Assembly (NCBI GenBank): GCA_964195905.1
Contig: CAXMQV010000005.1
Coordinates: 10,326-74,325 of the forward strand
Origin: an uncultured Gammaproteobacteria bacterium
GTDB taxonomy: Bacteria; Actinomycetota; Acidimicrobiia; Spongiisociales; SHLN01
Direction of reading: 5' to 3'
Length of the DNA: 64,000 bases
Every line of letters begins with the position of its first letter. The stretch's first letter is position 1. The notes under the pieces are model-generated. The model did not search any database, was not told the origin of the DNA, and saw only the letters and a program-made list of their open reading frames with translations. The position numbers and the translations under genes were made by a program. Below, one piece after another: positions 3,320 through 41,498 of this stretch.

Positions 3320-3472
3320 GTCCCAAGTCCCAAGTCGCACGTCCCAAGCCGGAACGAGCAATCCTCGTTGGGTCTTGGGTCTTGGGTCTTGGGTCTTGGG
3401 TCTTGGGTCTTGGGTCTTGGGTCTTGGGTCTTGGGTCTTGGGTCTTGGGTCTTGGGTCTTGGGTCTTGGGTC
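3320..3472. repeat. Heptamer arrays: 4 x GTCCCAA-type (3320-3347), 20-nt spacer, 15 x TTGGGTC (3368-3472)
   Basis: Counted directly: perfect 7-nt period from 3368 to 3472 (105 nt). The left arm is GTCCCAA GTCCCAA GTCGCAC GTCCCAA and starts 4 nt after the truA stop. Confidence 0.95.
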
Positions 3473-10075: not shown

Positions 10076-11169
10076 GGCCGTCCTGGGTGGAAGTCGATCT
10101 CGAGGCGATCCGCCACAATGTTCGGGAGATCAGCCGGGCGGTTGCTCCAGCCGCGTTCTGCGCGGTGGTCAAGGCCGACGGTTACGGGCACGGCGACGTC
10201 CCGGTGGCCGAGGCTGCCCTCCAGGCGGGGGCTGAGTGGTTGGCCGTGGCGACCGTTACCGAGGGCCTGCGGCTCCGCGAGGCCGGCATCGAAGCTCCGA
10301 TCCTTCTCCTGTCTGAGGCCACGGAGGCGGACGTGGCCGCAATCATTGCTGAGCGTCTCACGCCCACTGTGTACTCGGACGGCTTCCTGAGCGCACTAGC
10401 GGCGGCTGCCGGCGATCCGTTGGCAGTGCACGTGAAGGTCGATACCGGCATGCACCGGGTGGGAACCGATGAAGCGACCGCAGCCGGCCTCGTCGCTCGC
10501 ATCGTGGCCGACCCCGGGCTGCGTCTGGGCGGCCTCTGGACCCACTTCCCGTCGGCGGAGGAAGACCCTGCCTTCACCGGCGCCCAGATCAAGCAACTGG
10601 CTCAGTTCGTCGACGCCCGGGTTGCGGCGGGAGCAGCCCCCGACCTGGTGCACACCGCCAACTCGGCCGGCGCCCTGCTCTATCCCGAAGCCCGATTCGA
10701 TATGGTCCGCATCGGCCTGGCCATGTATGGCTGTTATCCATCACCAGCCTGTCGCGAGGTGGTGACGCTGCAGCCGGCCATGCGGGTCGTCTCTCAAGTC
10801 GTTCATGTCAAGCGCCTCCCCGCCGGGTCCCGACCCGCCTACGGCCGCATCCGGCCATTGGCTGAGGAATCGACCGTGGTCACGGTCCCCATCGGATACG
10901 CCGACGGAATCACGAGGCGGCTGGCCAAGATCGGAGGGGAAGTCCTCATCGGTGGCCGGCGGCGATCCTATGCGGGCATCGTGACGATGGATCAGATAAT
11001 CGTCACCATGGGTGACGATTCGGTGCAGCTCGGCGACGAAGTCGTTCTGCTTGGCCGACAGGGAGACGAGGAGATCGACGCCGACGAATGGGCCGGTCGG
11101 CTGGATTCGGTCAGCTGGGAAGTCCTCTGCGGGTTCGGTCCCCGGCTTCCGAGGCGCTACCGAGGATGA
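10072..11169 (+). CDS. alr: Alanine racemase
   Basis: MRPSWVEVDLEAIRHNV...AVVKADGYGHG (PLP lysine motif). ATGA overlap with nnr. The ORF extension from 9859 is rejected. Confidence 0.92.
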   Translation: MRPSWVEVDLEAIRHNVREISRAVAPAAFCAVVKADGYGHGDVPVAEAALQAGAEWLAVATVTEGLRLREAGIEAPILLLSEATEADVAAIIAERLTPTVYSDGFLSALAAAAGDPLAVHVKVDTGMHRVGTDEATAAGLVARIVADPGLRLGGLWTHFPSAEEDPAFTGAQIKQLAQFVDARVAAGAAPDLVHTANSAGALLYPEARFDMVRIGLAMYGCYPSPACREVVTLQPAMRVVSQVVHVKRLPAGSRPAYGRIRPLAEESTVVTVPIGYADGITRRLAKIGGEVLIGGRRRSYAGIVTMDQIIVTMGDDSVQLGDEVVLLGRQGDEEIDADEWAGRLDSVSWEVLCGFGPRLPRRYRG

Positions 11170-35350: not shown

Positions 35351-35692
35351 ATGACGAAGGTAGAAGAGATTCTCACTCAAGCGCGCGACACGCTCACGGT
35401 TCGGCGGGTCTTCGGAGAGCCGATCACCCAGAACGGAGTCACCATTGTCCCGGCGGCGGCCGTTCGGGGCGGGGGAGGGGGAGGCGAAGGCGACCCCGGG
35501 AAAGAATCTCCTGGTGGTTCGGGCGGTGGGTTCGGCATGACTGCCCGCCCCGTTGGGGCCTATCGGATCAGGGGGGACGAGGTCGATTGGGTTCCCGCCG
35601 CCGACACTACGAGGGTGATCCTGCTGGCTGAGGTGTTGGGCATCGTGGCCCTGTTGGTGGTGCGATCCGTGCTCAGGAGCCGTCGACGCTGA
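35351..35692 (+). CDS. GerW/YtfJ-family protein
   Basis: [40 protein letters not shown]...[18 protein letters not shown] ggagggg. Confidence 0.65.
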
Positions 35693-37439
35693 GATCCCGG
35701 ATGGCCGACAGAAAGACCTCGCCGTAGGTCTCCAGTTTCTTCGGCCCCACCCCGCTGACGTCGAGCAGTTCGGCCGGCGTGGAAGGACGCCGTTCGATCA
35801 TTTCTGCGAGCGTGGCATCGCTGAAGACGATGTAGGCAGGCACGCCCGCCTCATCGGCGAGTTGTCGCCGGACCGCCTTCAGGGCTTCGAAGGCCGGTCC
35901 TTCGGCCGCGGGCATCGTCGGAGCGGCCCTCGGGGCCGTCCGCTTTGAGCCACCGGACAGACCGGCGAGGATGTCGGCTCCGGTGCACACATGGCACGAT
36001 TCGCCGCAGTCGTCGATGACTTCGCCGAAGTACCCGACGATGGTTCGGTGCCGGCAGGCCAGACGATCGGCCCAGTTGAACATGTGGCGGATCCTTCGGT
36101 CGCCTCCTTCTTCTCCGTCCCTAGTCATGCGCTCCAGATTGATGACATCGGCCCACGAGTAGAAAAGGATGCAGTCGCTCGGGAGACCGTCGCGGCCCGC
36201 CCGGCCGATTTCCTGGTAGTAGGACTCGATCGACCTGGGCATGTCCCGATGAATGACGTATCGGACATTCGACTTGTCGATGCCCATGCCAAAGGCGATG
36301 GTGGCGCAGATCACCTCGATCTCGTCATGGATGAAAGCATCCTGGACGGCGGCTCGGGCTTCTCGCTCCAGCCCGGCGTGATAGGGCATCGCCGCCACTC
36401 CCATGCTTCGCAAGTACTCGGCGGTGGACTCGGCCGATTTGCGCGACAGCGTGTACACGATGCCGCTTTGCCCGGGTCGGGCCAGGCACAGCTTGCCAAT
36501 GGACTCGCGCACCTTGACCCGCCGACCGTCGGCGCTTTCGCCCTTCTTGACGACATGGATGTTCAGATTGGAGCGCAGGAACGAGCCCCGGAACAGCACC
36601 GGCTTGCGAAGGGCCAGCTGATCCTCGATGTCGCGGGTCACCTCGGAGGTAGCGGTGGCGGTGAGGGCGAGAACCGGGACACCGAATCTGTCTTTCAATC
36701 CCTGCAAGTTCCGGTAGGCGGGCCGGAAGTCGTGGCCCCATTGGCTGATACAGTGCGCTTCGTCGACGGCGATGAGCCGGAGATCGACACCCGACAGCGC
36801 CCCTCCCACCGAAGCCTCCAGTCCTTCCGGGGCGGCATACACCAGTTCATATTCGCCCCGTCGCATCTTGGCGATGCGGTCGGACCGTTCTTGCGGAGCC
36901 AGACTCGAGTTGAGGTAAGTGGAGCGGAATCCGGCCTGATCGAGCCCGTCGACCTGGTCTTTCATGAGGGCGATGAGCGGCGAGATCACCAGTGTGGTGC
37001 CGCCCAGCACCCTGGCGGCGAGCTGGAACGTGAGCGACTTGCCCGCCCCGGTGGGCATGACACCGATGCAATCGCGGCCGCCTACGACGGCGTCGATGAT
37101 CTCGCGCTGGCCGCGTCGGAAGCTCGAGAACCCGAAGGTGGCCTTCAGTGCCTCGTCGACGGCGGAGGCCAGGAGGGTGGAGAGGCCGGCGCTCAGATCG
37201 GTCAAGAGCGCGACCTGGTCGGCCGCGAACGACCCGGGATCCTGGCTCCAGAGTTGTCGGAGCGCTCCGAGCTGTCCGGCCGCTTCGGTGTAATCGCCGG
37301 CGACTATCCGCTCATCGAGCTGAGAGATGGCTTGGTCGATTCCAGCGCTCGTGTCTTCCATCGGACGATGACGGTACTCGACGGCGGCAACAGACGTGGA
37401 CATGACGGCAGTGTGCCCGACGGGTGCGACAAATCGCAT
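35673..37439 (-). CDS. recQ: ATP-dependent DNA helicase RecQ
   Basis: [14 protein letters not shown]...[27 protein letters not shown], a Zn-binding CHVC region, and a C-terminal HRDC ([29 protein letters not shown]). Start is ATG 37439 or 37403; the 905-aa extension to 38390 is rejected. Confidence 0.9.
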
Positions 37440-37499
37440 CGGCGCCCGTCGAATCCGCCCCACCGTGAACGTCTTACCAGGTAAGGAAAGGAACAAACA

Positions 37500-38252
37500 A
37501 TGAGACGAGCCATCGTCGTGGCCGTGAGTACTGCGCTGTTGATGATACTGTTCGGCGGCGTTGCGGCCGCCAACTCCTCCATCGACGGCGACGCAACTGA
37601 GGCCGATTCGGTCGTTCGAATCGACGATGACGTTGAGGCGAGCCACATCTGGAAGCGCTGTCGCCACTTGTTCGGTGACGAGGACCTGACCGCGGTTGCC
37701 AAAGAGCGCTGCCGGCAGCTGTGGAAGCGGTGGTGTGAGGCCCATCCGGATTCCCGCCGGTGCCATCGCCCGGATCCACCCCCACCGCCACCGCCGTGCT
37801 ACGACCGGTTGACCGATCACCGATGCATACCGATTCCGTGTCTCAGTGTCGATCGGTTGGTTGACCGGCGCTGCATTCCGAACCCATGTCTCATCGATCA
37901 GCTGGCCGACCGGCTGTGCATCCCTGATCCGTGCCGAATCGCGGATTTGGCAGCGGACCGGGTGTGCGTGCCCGATCCGTGTCTGCGAGCAGACGGAATC
38001 CTCCCGTGCGTGCCCGACCCGTGTCTGCGAGCCGATGGAATCATCACGTGCGTACCCGACCCCACGGAAGTCCCCAAGGTCCGCCCCATCGACCGGCCGG
38101 TCGACCGTCCGATCGATGTCCCACCGGATCGTCCCTCCGACAAGCCACCGGAGGTTCGGCCGAAGGGTCGGACCCCCGACCGCACAACCGACCGTCCAAT
38201 CGATCGAGTAGGAAATGACTTTCACCTTCGAGCTCTCGACGCCGATTCCTAG
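37500..38252 (+). CDS. Secreted protein with six tandem C-[IV]-P-x-P-C repeats and a Pro/Asp/Arg-rich tail
   Basis: Signal-like [26 protein letters not shown]. Repeats [14 protein letters not shown] / [14 protein letters not shown] / [14 protein letters not shown] / [14 protein letters not shown] / [12 protein letters not shown] / [10 protein letters not shown] (DNA 37800-38060, 42-48-nt units). SD-like aaggaaagg upstream. Confidence 0.6.
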
Positions 38253-38842
38253 GAGTACTCTCGCAACCCAGGGGCGAGCAATTACGCGTGATCCGAGCAA
38301 CGCAGAATTGGACGCACTCCCCGAGGGGGTGCGTCGGCTCGCGCCCGAGTCCTTCCGCCGGCTGTACGAATTGCTGGCTGATGGGCTCAACTCGTTTGCC
38401 TATTCGATGCTGCGCGATGGGAATGCCGCCGAGGACGCCGTTCAGCAGGCCTTCCTGGAACTCGTCAAGGCGGCTCCCACCATCCGGGGGGACGGCGCTT
38501 CGCTGCGAGCCTGGCTGTTTCGGAGCGTTCGCTACCGGTGCCTCGACGAGATACGCCGCCGGGAGCGGAGCCGCGAAACGCTGCACGGACAGGTCCCGGA
38601 TTACCTTCTCCCCACGGATCCTTGCGGGGGGTGGTGGCGACCTCGAGGTCGCCATGGCCGAGTTGACGGATCAGCAGCGGGCCGTGCTGTTTCTCCGTCA
38701 CGTCATGGGCATGAGCGGTCGCGAGTTCGCGGCCGTCCTTGAGACGAACCGGGCGGCCGTGTTCGCAACGGCCGCCCGCGCCGAGCGGCGGCTCCGCCAG
38801 GTTATGTCCGACGACGCGTCGGCAGGCGGGATGGGTGCCTGA
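38215..38842 (+). pseudogene. ECF (group 4) sigma-70 factor interrupted by a +1 frame change at a G6 run
   Basis: Region 2 ([37 protein letters not shown]...LRAWLFRSVRYRCLDEIRRRER) lies in the frame of 38215. Region 4 (LEVAMAELTDQQRAVLFLRHVMGMSGREFAAVLETNRAAVFATAARAERRLRQ) lies in the frame of 38288. The frames meet at gcGGGGGGtgg, 38626-38631. Confidence 0.8.
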
Positions 38843-38843
38843 G

Positions 38844-39812
38844 ATGAGCAAGTTCTCGCACCGACTCAGGCAGGCGACCTGGCGGCCGCTATCGGAGGAC
38901 TCCCGGTTGGATCATCTGGCGTCGATCGAGTCGGCCGTTGACGCCGAGGCAGCCCGGGTCCTGGCGCCGGCCTATCACCGGCGTCGTTTCTCGGTGATGG
39001 CGTTGGCAGCCGCCCTCGTCATCGTGCCGACCGGCATTGCCTTCGCGGCTGAGAACGCCATTCCCGGCGATGTCCTCTATCCCGTCAAGCGAGTAACCGA
39101 GACGGTTCGTTCGTGGGTGGATGAAGACGTCGTGGCCGAGCATCGCGTCGAGGAGCTGGAGCAACTCGTGGCCGCCGATACCCCCGACGACGCGATCTCT
39201 GATCAGATCGATCGAGCCACTCAAGAGGTGAATCGGCTGGACGGCGACAGTGCCCTCGAGTCACGGATTCTGGACGCCACCGCCGGCCACACGAACGATC
39301 GGGTCACCGATACCCCGCCACCGCCGGTCCGACCCGGTGATGGCCGGCCGGTGGACACCCCATCGGAAACCACAACCGGCACGACCGCCACCATCACCGA
39401 TGGCACAACGGTGACCAGTACCCCGATTGACCGGCCCACGACGACCACAACTGCAACCACCGTTGTCGACAAGACAACAACCACGATTCGACCCGATGCC
39501 GGAACCCACCGGGTGTTCGGATACGTGCACGCCGGTCCGACCTGTCCGGTCGTCCGATTTCCGCCCGATCCTGGTTGCGCTGATCAGCCGGTGCCGGGAG
39601 CGGCCCTCGTCGTCACTCGCGCAGACGGCACCGAGCTGAAGCGGGTGGAATCAAGCGCGGAGGGCCGCTTTGAGACCAGCCTCCCGGATGGCCCCTACTT
39701 GCTCGTGCCGCGAGAGTACGACGGCCTCCTCGGAACCGCCCCGGCTCAGGAGTTCATCGTTGATGGGGGTCCGGTCGAGCTCGATGTCGCCTACGACACC
39801 GGCATCCGGTAG
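38844..39812 (+). CDS. Putative membrane anti-sigma factor (DUF5667-like) with a Thr-rich linker and a C-terminal beta-rich domain
   Basis: Starts 2 nt after the sigma stop. One TM segment (FSVMALAAALVIVPTGIAFAA), PGDVLYPVKRVTE motif, poly-Thr linker, and a C-terminal GPTCPVVRFPPDPGCADQPVPGAALVV. Confidence 0.5.
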   Translation: MSKFSHRLRQATWRPLSEDSRLDHLASIESAVDAEAARVLAPAYHRRRFSVMALAAALVIVPTGIAFAAENAIPGDVLYPVKRVTETVRSWVDEDVVAEHRVEELEQLVAADTPDDAISDQIDRATQEVNRLDGDSALESRILDATAGHTNDRVTDTPPPPVRPGDGRPVDTPSETTTGTTATITDGTTVTSTPIDRPTTTTTATTVVDKTTTTIRPDAGTHRVFGYVHAGPTCPVVRFPPDPGCADQPVPGAALVVTRADGTELKRVESSAEGRFETSLPDGPYLLVPREYDGLLGTAPAQEFIVDGGPVELDVAYDTGIR

Positions 39813-39821
39813 CCGGCCGGT

Positions 39822-41498
39822 CTAGCGCCAGTCGACCGAGCCCGTGGTGGGTGTGACGTGGATCCAGGTCCGTCCCGGGGTCATGGGGATCTCCCGCCCA
39901 TCGGTTCGGATGAGCCGGAAGAAGTCGCTGGTGCTGCCACGCTCCCAGGTGACCGGCCAGGCCTTGCCGTTGCGGAACACCACTCCATCTCCGCTGCCGA
40001 CCACCCGATAGTCGGGTACCGGCTGGCCGGCCGAGTCGAAGCGGCCCGTGCTGATCGGGTCGACGAAGACCACCACGACCGAATCGGCGGTGATGGGGTC
40101 GCCGGCGGTGTCAACCGCCGCGACGCCGGACTGGTGCCGGAAGTAGCGGTCCGACTGGTACTCCCAGGCGAGCGTATTCGGGCCGGACATAGCGACGTCG
40201 ATGCTGGTCGCCGACGCCCCGCCGGACGGTATCCAGGCGTCGAACGGGAGCACCGGGTCGACGACGCCGACCCAGCCGTCGTCGGGGAGCCGGTCGAAGT
40301 TGTACATGAGGTCATAGACCGGCGGTCGGCCGGCTTCCCGGTAATACCCGGCGATGCGTCCGTTACCCTCGTCGACGGCCACCTCGGCCAGGGCTGCCCG
40401 CACCGAAGGCTGGCCGCCGCTGTGGAGAACTCGGGCATCGAAGGGCTCAATGAGCTTTGGATCGACCTCCCGGACGCTGCGGATGGGCCCGACAGTCTCG
40501 GGGTACCCGGTCTGGTAGAGAGCGATCCACCGGCCGACGCCGCCTTCGACGATGACCTCCATGACGAGGTCGGCCTCGGCGATCCCGGCCTGGGGCCGGG
40601 CCTTGTAGGAGTTGGAGATCTTGGCGATGACCACTCGCCGCGAGGCGTCGCCACCTGCCAACCCGGTGAGGGGGGCGATCCGGCTGGTCGGCTCGACATG
40701 GAGGTGGATGTTGCCGGCGAGTGGCTGCCAACCGCGCCGGCCGAAGAGGAAGCTCTTTTGGGCCGATCCCGTCCAGAGGAAATTGTGGAGGTGGACCGAC
40801 GTCGTGAAGGGTCGGAAGATGCCGGGGGAATCGAATCCATCGCCGTCCCAGTCGCCGATGACGAGCTCGTCGCCGGAATCACCGAAGTAGAGCGAGCCGG
40901 AGGAGAAGGCTACGGGACCCCCGGCGGGGTCGTCCGTGTAGAAGATCGACGACGAGGAAGTTCGGTGCAGGAACAGCCCGTCGATGCCGTCCCCGTCCGG
41001 ATCGCCGGCATAGGGGATGTCGGTCGTGGTCCCGAACCAGAAGACGCGCGAGGCAATCGTGGTCGCGTTCGTGTCGGTCAAGAACACCTGTCCATTGCGG
41101 CTCAACCCAAGAGTGTCGACGCCATCGCCGTCCCAGTCACCGGTGAACACCCGGTCGCCCTGCAAGCCGAAGAAGAACGTGATGTCCGGCTCGGTGGTGG
41201 TGCTCCCGAATTTCGGGATCTCGTTGGTGAGATGGGCTGCTCCCCAGGCAGATCGATACACACCGGGAGTGTCGATCCCGTCGCCGTCCCAGTCACCGAG
41301 AAGGGGAATGTCGCCCGGTTCGCCGTATGTGAACGTGTAATCCACGAAACCGGGTACCTGTACGTGCCAGCGTCCGCCGGGCTCGACGAAAACCACGTGG
41401 TCGGTGGGCGCCGGAAATGCCGGGCTCGGCGTCGCCTGGAGGACGGCGCCGATGAGGGCAACGCCCAGCACCGTACCAACCGCCCATTTTCCGCCCAC
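39822..41498 (-). CDS. Secreted protein: N-terminal GDWDGDG (FG-GAP/VCBS-like) repeats + C-terminal DUF3048-like domain
   Basis: Signal-like N-terminus. About 5 repeats (GDIPLLGDWDGDGIDTPGVYR...). Then IAPLTGL...VVIAKISNSYKARPQAGIAEADLVMEVIVEGGVGRWIALY...VGPIRSVR, typical of DUF3048. Confidence 0.65.
   Translation of the reverse strand: MGGKWAVGTVLGVALIGAVLQATPSPAFPAPTDHVVFVEPGGRWHVQVPGFVDYTFTYGEPGDIPLLGDWDGDGIDTPGVYRSAWGAAHLTNEIPKFGSTTTEPDITFFFGLQGDRVFTGDWDGDGVDTLGLSRNGQVFLTDTNATTIASRVFWFGTTTDIPYAGDPDGDGIDGLFLHRTSSSSIFYTDDPAGGPVAFSSGSLYFGDSGDELVIGDWDGDGFDSPGIFRPFTTSVHLHNFLWTGSAQKSFLFGRRGWQPLAGNIHLHVEPTSRIAPLTGLAGGDASRRVVIAKISNSYKARPQAGIAEADLVMEVIVEGGVGRWIALYQTGYPETVGPIRSVREVDPKLIEPFDARVLHSGGQPSVRAALAEVAVDEGNGRIAGYYREAGRPPVYDLMYNFDRLPDDGWVGVVDPVLPFDAWIPSGGASATSIDVAMSGPNTLAWEYQSDRYFRHQSGVAAVDTAGDPITADSVVVVFVDPISTGRFDSAGQPVPDYRVVGSGDGVVFRNGKAWPVTWERGSTSDFFRLIRTDGREIPMTPGRTWIHVTPTTGSVDWR

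Follow-up and report, generated by a model that had tools for sequence, protein, structure and literature searches.

A secreted cysteine-loop repeat protein as the most likely output of an autoregulated ECF sigma factor operon in marine-sediment Acidimicrobiia

Pairs of extracytoplasmic function (ECF) sigma factors and anti-sigma factors are the commonest reporters of the bacterial envelope, and the signals and outputs of most groups are unknown. The locus described here raises the question of output directly. In the 64,000-nt stretch of contig CAXMQV010000005.1 that was analysed (hereafter the window; 65% G+C), part of a 2.7-Mb metagenome-assembled genome (MAG) that is about 90% complete, a plus-strand open reading frame (ORF) at 37500-38252 encodes a 250-aa repeat protein, to which we give the working name REP. 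It is followed by genes for an ECF sigma factor and for a single-pass membrane protein resembling an anti-sigma factor. Is REP the ligand that this system senses, or the product that it makes? A sequence-only reading of the same DNA had proposed either role, for what it took to be a disulfide or metal-rich envelope protein. The analysis reported here supports the second, on the ground of a conserved promoter ahead of REP, and the protein is most likely the output of an autoregulated ECF circuit with a single promoter. Those of its homologues that carry names belong to the Acidimicrobiia, and DNA of the window is found in marine-sediment metagenomes.

The evidence begins upstream of REP. An ECF-type promoter footprint at 37448-37476 of the plus strand consists of a -35-like block, GTCGAATC (37448-37455), a 14-nt spacer and a -10-like block, CGTCTTA (37470-37476), and ends 24 nt ahead of the REP ATG. 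It is followed at 37483-37492 by a Shine-Dalgarno-like run, AAGGAAAGGA, which is conserved in all aligned upstream regions. In the same alignment, the blocks CCGTCGAATC and CGTCTTA are invariant or differ by no more than two bases in 14 loci, while the spacer is variable. The CGTC of the -10 block and the '..AAT' of the -35 block fit the pattern expected for an ECF promoter, and the footprint is a good candidate for the cognate -35/-10 pair that the sequence-only reading had suggested looking for ahead of 37500. Of 61 relatives, 17 have the exact motif, GTCGAATC-N14-CGTCTTA, once each; it is present in 16 of the 401 genomes of a class-wide sample, and the reversed motif, taken as a control, matches nothing in either set (0/61 and 0/401). 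The source genome also holds one strict match. When up to two mismatches are allowed, it yields ten matches and no second credible site: all but the operon's own lie inside coding sequence, among them those of an aminotransferase, a CCA-adding/HD enzyme and a small basic ribosomal protein gene. Matches with a 15-nt spacer in genomes G045 and G054 both fell inside the same aminotransferase coding sequence and were set aside, and motif matches outside the order, which lack the flanking CC, a Shine-Dalgarno sequence or a downstream sigma gene, were treated as chance.

What stands behind the promoter differs from family to family. In four other families of the order, the motif precedes a gene for a secreted protein, which is in turn followed by the orthologous sigma gene, and this first gene is unrelated to REP: its product carries DRPT repeats and a Cys/His cluster in G037, CxC repeats and a His-rich tract (HTHGHAH) in G032, an acidic sequence that ends in an Asp/His tail in G044 and G404, and an Asp/His/Met-rich sequence in G347. 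All five types of first-gene product behind the motif are secreted and of low complexity, with 15-21% Asp. One promoter match per genome, together with the unrelated secreted first genes elsewhere, indicates that the sigma factor most likely drives its own operon only, the first cistron being a cargo that has been exchanged during evolution. Since the first gene is exchanged behind the same promoter and sigma factor, the role of output is favoured over that of an obligatory sensor.

Two further loci with the motif are of a different make-up. In G050 (locus L028, contig G050:C53, motif at 3361-3388), a promoter and leader like those of G032 precede a gene for a GDWDGDG-repeat (FG-GAP/VCBS-like) protein devoid of Cys repeats, which is similar to the repeats at the N-terminus of the DUF3048 protein encoded at 39822-41498 of the window; either a second target gene or a rearrangement may account for it. 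In locus L047 (contig G356:C215, motif at 10288-10315), a good Shine-Dalgarno sequence is followed by a gene for an acidic protein of 159 aa, secreted or membrane-bound, and then by a FabH-like gene, with no sigma gene; the sigma factor of that genome may be encoded elsewhere in it.

The REP, sigma and anti-sigma genes travel together. Homologues of REP in public data (n=14; 32-72% identity) all come from Acidimicrobiia or sediment metagenomes, with open-frame matches in five of seven same-genus genomes and in one other genus. Directly behind the REP gene stands an ECF sigma gene in 14 of the 14 loci whose flanks can be read, namely the window, six related genomes, five independent metagenome or MAG contigs and two short contigs that cover the junction only. 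A membrane protein of 306-376 aa, resembling an anti-sigma factor, comes after the sigma gene wherever the contig reaches, and in most loci recQ adjoins the operon in divergent orientation. The linkage to an ECF gene is thus conserved, and the three-gene unit proposed from the letters stands, as does its geometry: REP overlaps the ORF that begins at ATG 38215 by 38 nt, and the ATG of the anti-sigma gene (38844) lies 2 nt after the sigma stop (38842).

The product of the first gene is built from several distinct parts. Residues 1-24 of REP resemble a Sec signal peptide (MRR, a hydrophobic stretch and AAA|N), and the N-termini of the orthologues read MKR, which makes a Tat signal unlikely. Residues 43-88 form a predicted helical hairpin with four invariant cysteines (W-KRCR..(17)..ERC..LWKRWC.AHP..R.C), the best-conserved part of the protein. 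A poly-Pro run (aa 91-99) is followed by six C-x8-10-C loops with [IV]-P-x-P linkers between them (aa 100-184), by a tail of DRPxDRP repeats (aa 189-236) and by a conserved C-terminus (aa 237-250, GND[VF]HLR..DADS), which is kept at the protein level as [GS][ND]D.[HY][VL]R...AD[SL], the most distant members included. The signal peptide and the (D/P/R)-rich tail described earlier are both seen, and an AlphaFold2 model of REP, built on 15 sequences, places a helix over residues 2-23; the model is confident only for this helix and for helices 43-58 and 65-81, the two hairpin helices having predicted local distance difference test (pLDDT) values of 71-88.

The repeat itself reads somewhat differently from its first description. 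Repeats of 14-16 aa with C-[IV]-P-x-P-C are borne out, while complete CxPxPC motifs number five instead of six, the sixth reading CVPDP-T, and the cysteines amount to 16 instead of 18 (12 in the repeats and 6 in the N-terminal part, by the earlier count), with C54, C71, C79 and C88 in the helical part and 12 from C100 to C184. We read the repeat unit instead as a C-x8-10-C loop with an [IV]-P-x-P linker behind it, which explains the lone C100 and C184; the smallest members of the family have the four core cysteines and exactly one C-x10-C loop (DC[RH]ITDRV[VIL]DRRC). Homologues have between 1 and about 8 Cys loops. In REP, a 42-nt DNA tandem repeat at 37964-38062 of the plus strand (2.4 copies, 89% matches by Tandem Repeats Finder) encodes the final two or three, which indicates an array that is evolving by duplication. 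The cysteine count is even in 19 of 19 family members (range 4-20), and genes for VKOR and a DsbA-like thioredoxin are present in the genome. These features together point to disulfide-closed loops as the likely state of REP, the predicted pairs being C100-C109, C114-C125, C130-C140, C145-C156, C161-C170 and C175-C184.

No named family accommodates this protein, in line with the earlier remark on its repeat: Pfam-A and NCBIfam scans of REP from the window gave no family match, and the only Pfam match among its homologues is the PT repeat (PF04886), in 3 of 15. REP is the only ORF of at least 100 aa with more than two C.P.PC motifs in the 2.7-Mb genome, and its exact sequence has no record in public assemblies. 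A profile of its N-terminal domain, run against 1.84 billion proteins, returned 15 representatives, about 12 of them true members. By these comparisons, the REP family is real, very small, unnamed and narrowly distributed. Two proteins of other organisms that are unrelated to REP (P0021 and P0023) carry four or five tandem C-x17-C helical motifs like the REP hairpin (...CW..H.SDDAP..LK.RCR.W...), and to judge from this likeness the 4-Cys hairpin may be a small module of wider spread.

The sigma factor is, by its domain content, a plain ECF member. Region 2 is encoded at 38215-38625 of the plus strand (Sigma70_r2, PF04542, E=2.4e-16) and region 4 at 38627-38842 (Sigma70_r4_2, PF08281, E=1.2e-8; TGA at 38840-38842), and the latter is 70-83% identical to that of the orthologues. 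The ECF superfamily model TIGR02937 (cut-off 42.9 bits) gives 74.3 bits for an intact orthologue and 45.2 bits for the region-2 piece of the window. The best sequence matches in the PDB are ECF sigma factors, SigK, SigL, SigE and SigH included.

Its presumed partner is a 322-aa single-pass membrane protein encoded at 38844-39812 of the plus strand, a position after the sigma gene that is conserved. An AlphaFold2 model built on eight sequences starts with cytoplasmic helices (residues 3-38) and crosses the membrane in one helix (46-69); beyond it, the model shows a helical bundle (79-153), then a linker rich in Thr and Pro that is disordered (154-218), and last a beta-sandwich (221-317, pLDDT about 85). 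The sequence-only reading had called this protein a DUF5667-like anti-sigma factor, and the likeness is a fair label for the ectodomain at aa 72-153, which matches DUF5667 weakly in eight of eight orthologues (E<=0.01, best 2.3e-5). The 'similar Cys/Pro signature' that had been read in it (GPTCPVVRFPPDPGC) proves to be a C-x10-C pair, C234/C245, that opens the beta-sandwich, with no CxPxPC repeat. In a Foldseek comparison, the predicted sandwich matches CnaB2 (8bdw_A, E=4e-6, template modelling score 0.79 on the target) among 48 matches at E<=1e-3, which assigns the modelled C-terminal domain to the CnaB/transthyretin-like (CarboxypepD_reg) fold; the CarboxypepD_reg model itself is below threshold in the window (23.5 vs 32.3 bits) and matches six of the eight orthologues. 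The sandwich (39504-39809, aa 221-322, GPTCPV...DTGIR) has free-standing homologues of 127-206 aa, 49-56% identical to it, in several further families of this order (G030, G047, G039, G019, G050 and G032), and the N-terminal half of the protein is elsewhere paired with other C-termini. A sequence search of the PDB gave a chance match only (E=0.19). Gene position, predicted membrane topology and conserved linkage suggest the anti-sigma label.

We consider it moderately probable that the architecture is that of an autoregulated ECF module, with a single promoter and secreted REP as its product. One operon would carry, in order, the ECF-type promoter, secreted REP, the ECF sigma factor and the single-pass membrane anti-sigma factor, whose short cytoplasmic N-terminus would hold the sigma factor at the membrane. 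An envelope signal, read by the anti-sigma ectodomain with its DUF5667-like bundle and beta-sandwich, would free the sigma factor, which would then transcribe REP, itself and its inhibitor from the genome's only promoter of that type; as this promoter is unique in the genome, REP would be the only non-regulatory product made. Exported by the Sec pathway and then oxidatively folded with disulfide bonds, REP would be an extended, proline-stiffened and disulfide-stapled envelope protein, the length of which changes in evolution as loops are gained and lost. The sequences show the reality of the gene, the linkage of the three genes, the promoter footprint and its uniqueness, the frameshift in the sigma gene and the existence of an in-frame allele; within the scheme we infer the binding of sigma by anti-sigma, the use of the promoter by the sigma factor, the secretion and disulfide pairing of REP, and its role.

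Several observations weigh against the scheme. The -35 block reads GAAT, where GAAC is usual for ECF promoters, and in a genome that is about 90% complete further promoters could be missing. No ECF subgroup model, those for SigM, SigK and SigJ included, reaches its cut-off with the sigma factor (best scores: PRK05602, 80.7 vs 208 bits; TIGR02983 of the SigE family, 77.5 vs 141.6 bits). On the side of its partner, no anti-sigma domain family is matched in Pfam or NCBIfam, the zinc-binding anti-sigma (ZAS) motif H-x3-C-x2-C, which belongs to a four-helix domain of about 80 aa, is absent from a cytoplasmic part of about 45 aa that has no Cys, and the DUF5667 match (PF18915, aa 72-133, 23.5 bits, E=7.3e-5) stays below the gathering threshold of 27, short of Pfam membership. 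Residues 100-250 of REP have pLDDT values below 50 in the AlphaFold2 model, so that the loop and linker reading follows from sequence logic alone. The window sigma gene carries a frameshift at a C4G6 run of low depth, which could be an assembly artefact. Poly-A metatranscriptomes of a related study, with zero coverage and no sampled words of the locus, are uninformative and not evidence of silence.

If REP is the output, what would it do in the envelope? A role as a structural or spacer protein is the one to which we lean, tentatively and at somewhat less than even chances, and it is not mutually exclusive with a feedback or metal-related function. REP might instead be a signalling partner, which is the sensed-ligand role of the sequence-only reading: the anti-sigma ectodomain, or a site-1 protease, would read its C-terminal peptide or its folding state. 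The trio would then sense, as three components, redox state or oxidative folding outside the cytoplasm, a version compatible with the autoregulated module. Even the most remote homologues keep the C-terminal pattern, REP is the operon's first product to be translated, and the anti-sigma protein has its beta-sandwich domain only in genomes with REP, the relatives with other first genes being without it. However, this co-occurrence is limited to one clade and is therefore confounded by descent, and the finding of the same promoter and sigma factor with unrelated first genes in other families fits a swappable cargo better; on balance, we regard a signalling role as unlikely.

A third possibility is that REP and the other first-gene products serve as extracytoplasmic cation or metal 'sponges' under metal stress, the ECF pair being a metal-responsive switch. 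The analogy is with PcoE and SilE, which are periplasmic metal binders, and with CnrYXH, a metal-responsive ECF switch. The Asp-rich, low-complexity character shared by all five secreted first-gene types, with their clusters of Cys, His or Met, would suit such a function. Yet the even cysteine count throughout the REP family argues for disulfides and not for free thiolates, mature REP has few His and no Met, no metal-resistance genes adjoin the operon, and the Pfam and NCBIfam scans of REP gave no homology to metal-binding families, whether CnrX-type sensors or PcoE/SilE-type proteins, so the likeness is one of analogy only. A metal-binding role seems quite improbable. Of the 'disulfide or metal-rich envelope protein' of the sequence-only reading, it is the disulfide half that gains support, indirectly, from the even counts, VKOR and the DsbA-like protein, and the metal-rich half that does not.

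Whether the circuit works in the organism that was sequenced is a separate matter. Described earlier as a single ORF, the sigma gene of the window is in fact split over two frames: the Sigma70_r2 ORF (38215-38742) runs on past region 2 to a stop at 38742, the Sigma70_r4_2 ORF (38288-38842) is in the +1 frame relative to it, and the reading switches at 38622-38631. All orthologous sigma factors are encoded by a single ORF, reading TDPSPGGEGDL or similar (PDDLLSTDPSPGGEGDL) at this place. Public contigs assembled by sequencing run (Logan) hold both forms, runs X1, X2, X3 and X4 being from one study and X5 and X6 from another. The window allele, T-GC-GGGGGG (TGCGGGGGG), occurs in contigs of X1 (about 14x) and X2. 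The in-frame allele, T-CCCC-GGGGGG (TCCCCGGGGGG), which differs by G38624C and an inserted CC and restores ...TDPSPGGGGDL..., occurs in those of X3, X4, X5 and X6. Compared with the in-frame allele that co-occurs with it, the window sequence is a two-base deletion plus one substitution.

An assembly or sequencing error, with the operon intact and functional in the real organism, would be in keeping with a site that is a GC-only C4G6 run, with depths of 3-14x and with the in-frame allele in four of the six runs, two of them from the study of X1 and X2, in sequence that is otherwise nearly identical. However, the same loss of two bases and G for C appear in the MAG and in contigs assembled independently from two runs (X1, at about 14x, and X2), and the change is not a simple homopolymer length error. 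Also at 38726, in region 4, the window has a private non-synonymous T (Phe) in place of the G (Val) found in Logan contigs of X1, X2, X6 and X8 and of the Val of the orthologues, which would fit relaxed constraint. As an identical complex change recurs in three assemblies, we rate the frameshift as very probably a real polymorphism and an artefact as improbable. Programmed frameshifting was rejected, every orthologue and four public runs showing a plain single frame. If the alleles are read in this way, the strain variant of the window probably cannot induce the operon, and its circuit is probably off.

The start of the sigma gene is less plain than its end. Candidate starts are ATG 38215, ATT 38281, TTG 38308 and GTG 38329. 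The first arises from the Gly-Asn-Asp codons of REP (GGAAATGAC) and is out of the sigma frame in 5 of 13 comparable loci, in which no ATG, GTG or TTG precedes the conserved sigma stretch, itself varying with a three-base period. An invariant ATT or ATC (38281-38283 in the window) lies 5-8 nt past a purine-rich run (AGGGG, 38270-38274, in the window), and initiation at AUU or AUC is possible on this comparison. In four loci (L022, L050, L051 and L014), REP and sigma share a frame and are split only by the REP TAG stop and about nine start-less codons; read-through of this stop, fusing REP to sigma, was judged implausible, REP being exported.

There remains the doubt, raised at the outset by a long antisense ORF, over whether 37500-38252 is read on the plus strand at all. 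The antisense ORF is present, spanning 35673-38390 and covering the REP region as a 5' extension of recQ, and the G+C content of third codon positions, 0.705 in the REP frame and 0.692 in the antisense frame, does not separate the two because they share codon position 2. Substitution counts per codon position and the conservation of the antisense ORF were used to decide in its place. Against the closest REP homologue, plus-frame substitutions number 31, 24 and 73 at codon positions 1, 2 and 3, with similar ratios in pairs of distant homologues, and indels among homologues are whole repeat units. The antisense extension is open for 341 codons in the window and for 17-224 codons in the orthologues. 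RecQ orthologues, 70-75% identical, lose their similarity near the MSTSV/VEYRHR start, and the start of recQ is likely ATG 37403 (MSTSV...), the listed extension to 38390 being false. That the ORF is no gene, the region being non-coding or belonging to the 5' end of a long recQ, is almost certainly wrong: an open antisense frame and the undecided third-position G+C would allow it, whereas the end of RecQ homology at about 37403, the interrupted extension in orthologues, the conserved plus-frame protein and the wobble pattern refute it. By these comparisons, the plus-strand ORF is a real gene and the antisense ORF its shadow, which settles the doubt on reading frame in favour of the plus strand.

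Comparison with characterized systems brings out what is particular to the operon; the literature consulted offered nothing on DUF5667, on ECF sigma factors in Acidimicrobiia or on CXPXPC. Actinobacterial ECF pairs, such as SigK-RskA, SigL-RslA and the SigE family of M. tuberculosis, share with it a two-domain sigma factor (regions 2 and 4), a co-transcribed single-pass membrane partner and, if the footprint is the promoter in use, an 'AAT/AAC ... CGTC' promoter upstream of their own operon. They differ in that here all specific ECF subfamily models score below their cut-offs, the partner has a DUF5667-like and CnaB-like ectodomain in place of a known anti-sigma domain or zinc motif, a gene for a secreted protein comes first, and the operon promoter is apparently the sole target. 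In the CnrYXH and NccYXH systems of Cupriavidus, the genes for an ECF sigma factor, a membrane anti-sigma factor and a third protein, which is extracytoplasmic, stand together in an autoregulated operon. The REP operon has no more in common with them than the idea of a third component, REP having no relation to CnrX in sequence or predicted fold and the gene order being different. The DRPxDRP tail is a Pro-rich disordered repeat like the PT repeat and other Pro-rich spacers, although PT-repeat proteins lack the 4-Cys hairpin and the C-terminal motif that define the REP family. The hinge of immunoglobulin G3, with Pro-rich tandem modules of about 15 residues and paired cysteines, is thought to be a stiff, extended stalk held by interchain disulfides. 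The parallel is one of structure and not of homology, the loops of REP, a bacterial secreted protein, being presumably closed within one chain.

The operon is flanked on both sides by genes of the opposite strand. Downstream lies the DUF3048 gene (39822-41498) and upstream the divergent recQ helicase gene (35673-37403, minus strand), with DEAD, Helicase_C, RecQ_Zn_bind and HRDC domains. Between the recQ start and the ECF promoter, a conserved block at 37405-37436 (GCAGTGTG.C....GGTG.GACAAATC) holds a small palindrome, CCCGTCGGG, and may be a recQ promoter or leader.

No general principle is changed by the REP operon. Its features could, taken at their fullest, define an undescribed ECF group of one Acidimicrobiia order, with a sigma factor that serves only its own promoter and is limited in amount by AUU or AUC initiation, a fast-evolving, exchangeable cassette for an Asp-rich secreted protein (in this clade the disulfide-loop ladder REP), feedback of the oxidative folding or C-terminus of REP on the beta-sandwich ectodomain of the anti-sigma factor, and natural sigma-null alleles by which populations turn the circuit off, a combination that we think doubtful as a whole. 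What the locus does offer is an ECF system in which the output would be legible from sequence, one conserved promoter per genome leading to one secreted protein and its own regulators, in a compact circuit of marine-sediment Acidimicrobiia, a lineage with almost no genetics. The predicted design of the REP family is unusual in itself, setting disulfide-closed loops on proline linkers in copy numbers from 1 to about 8, and the matched promoter and sigma factor, as an orthogonal pair, could serve as a genetic part. That broken and intact forms of the sigma gene occur side by side in the same sediments suggests that, in some circumstances, these bacteria can dispense with the circuit or are under selection against it.

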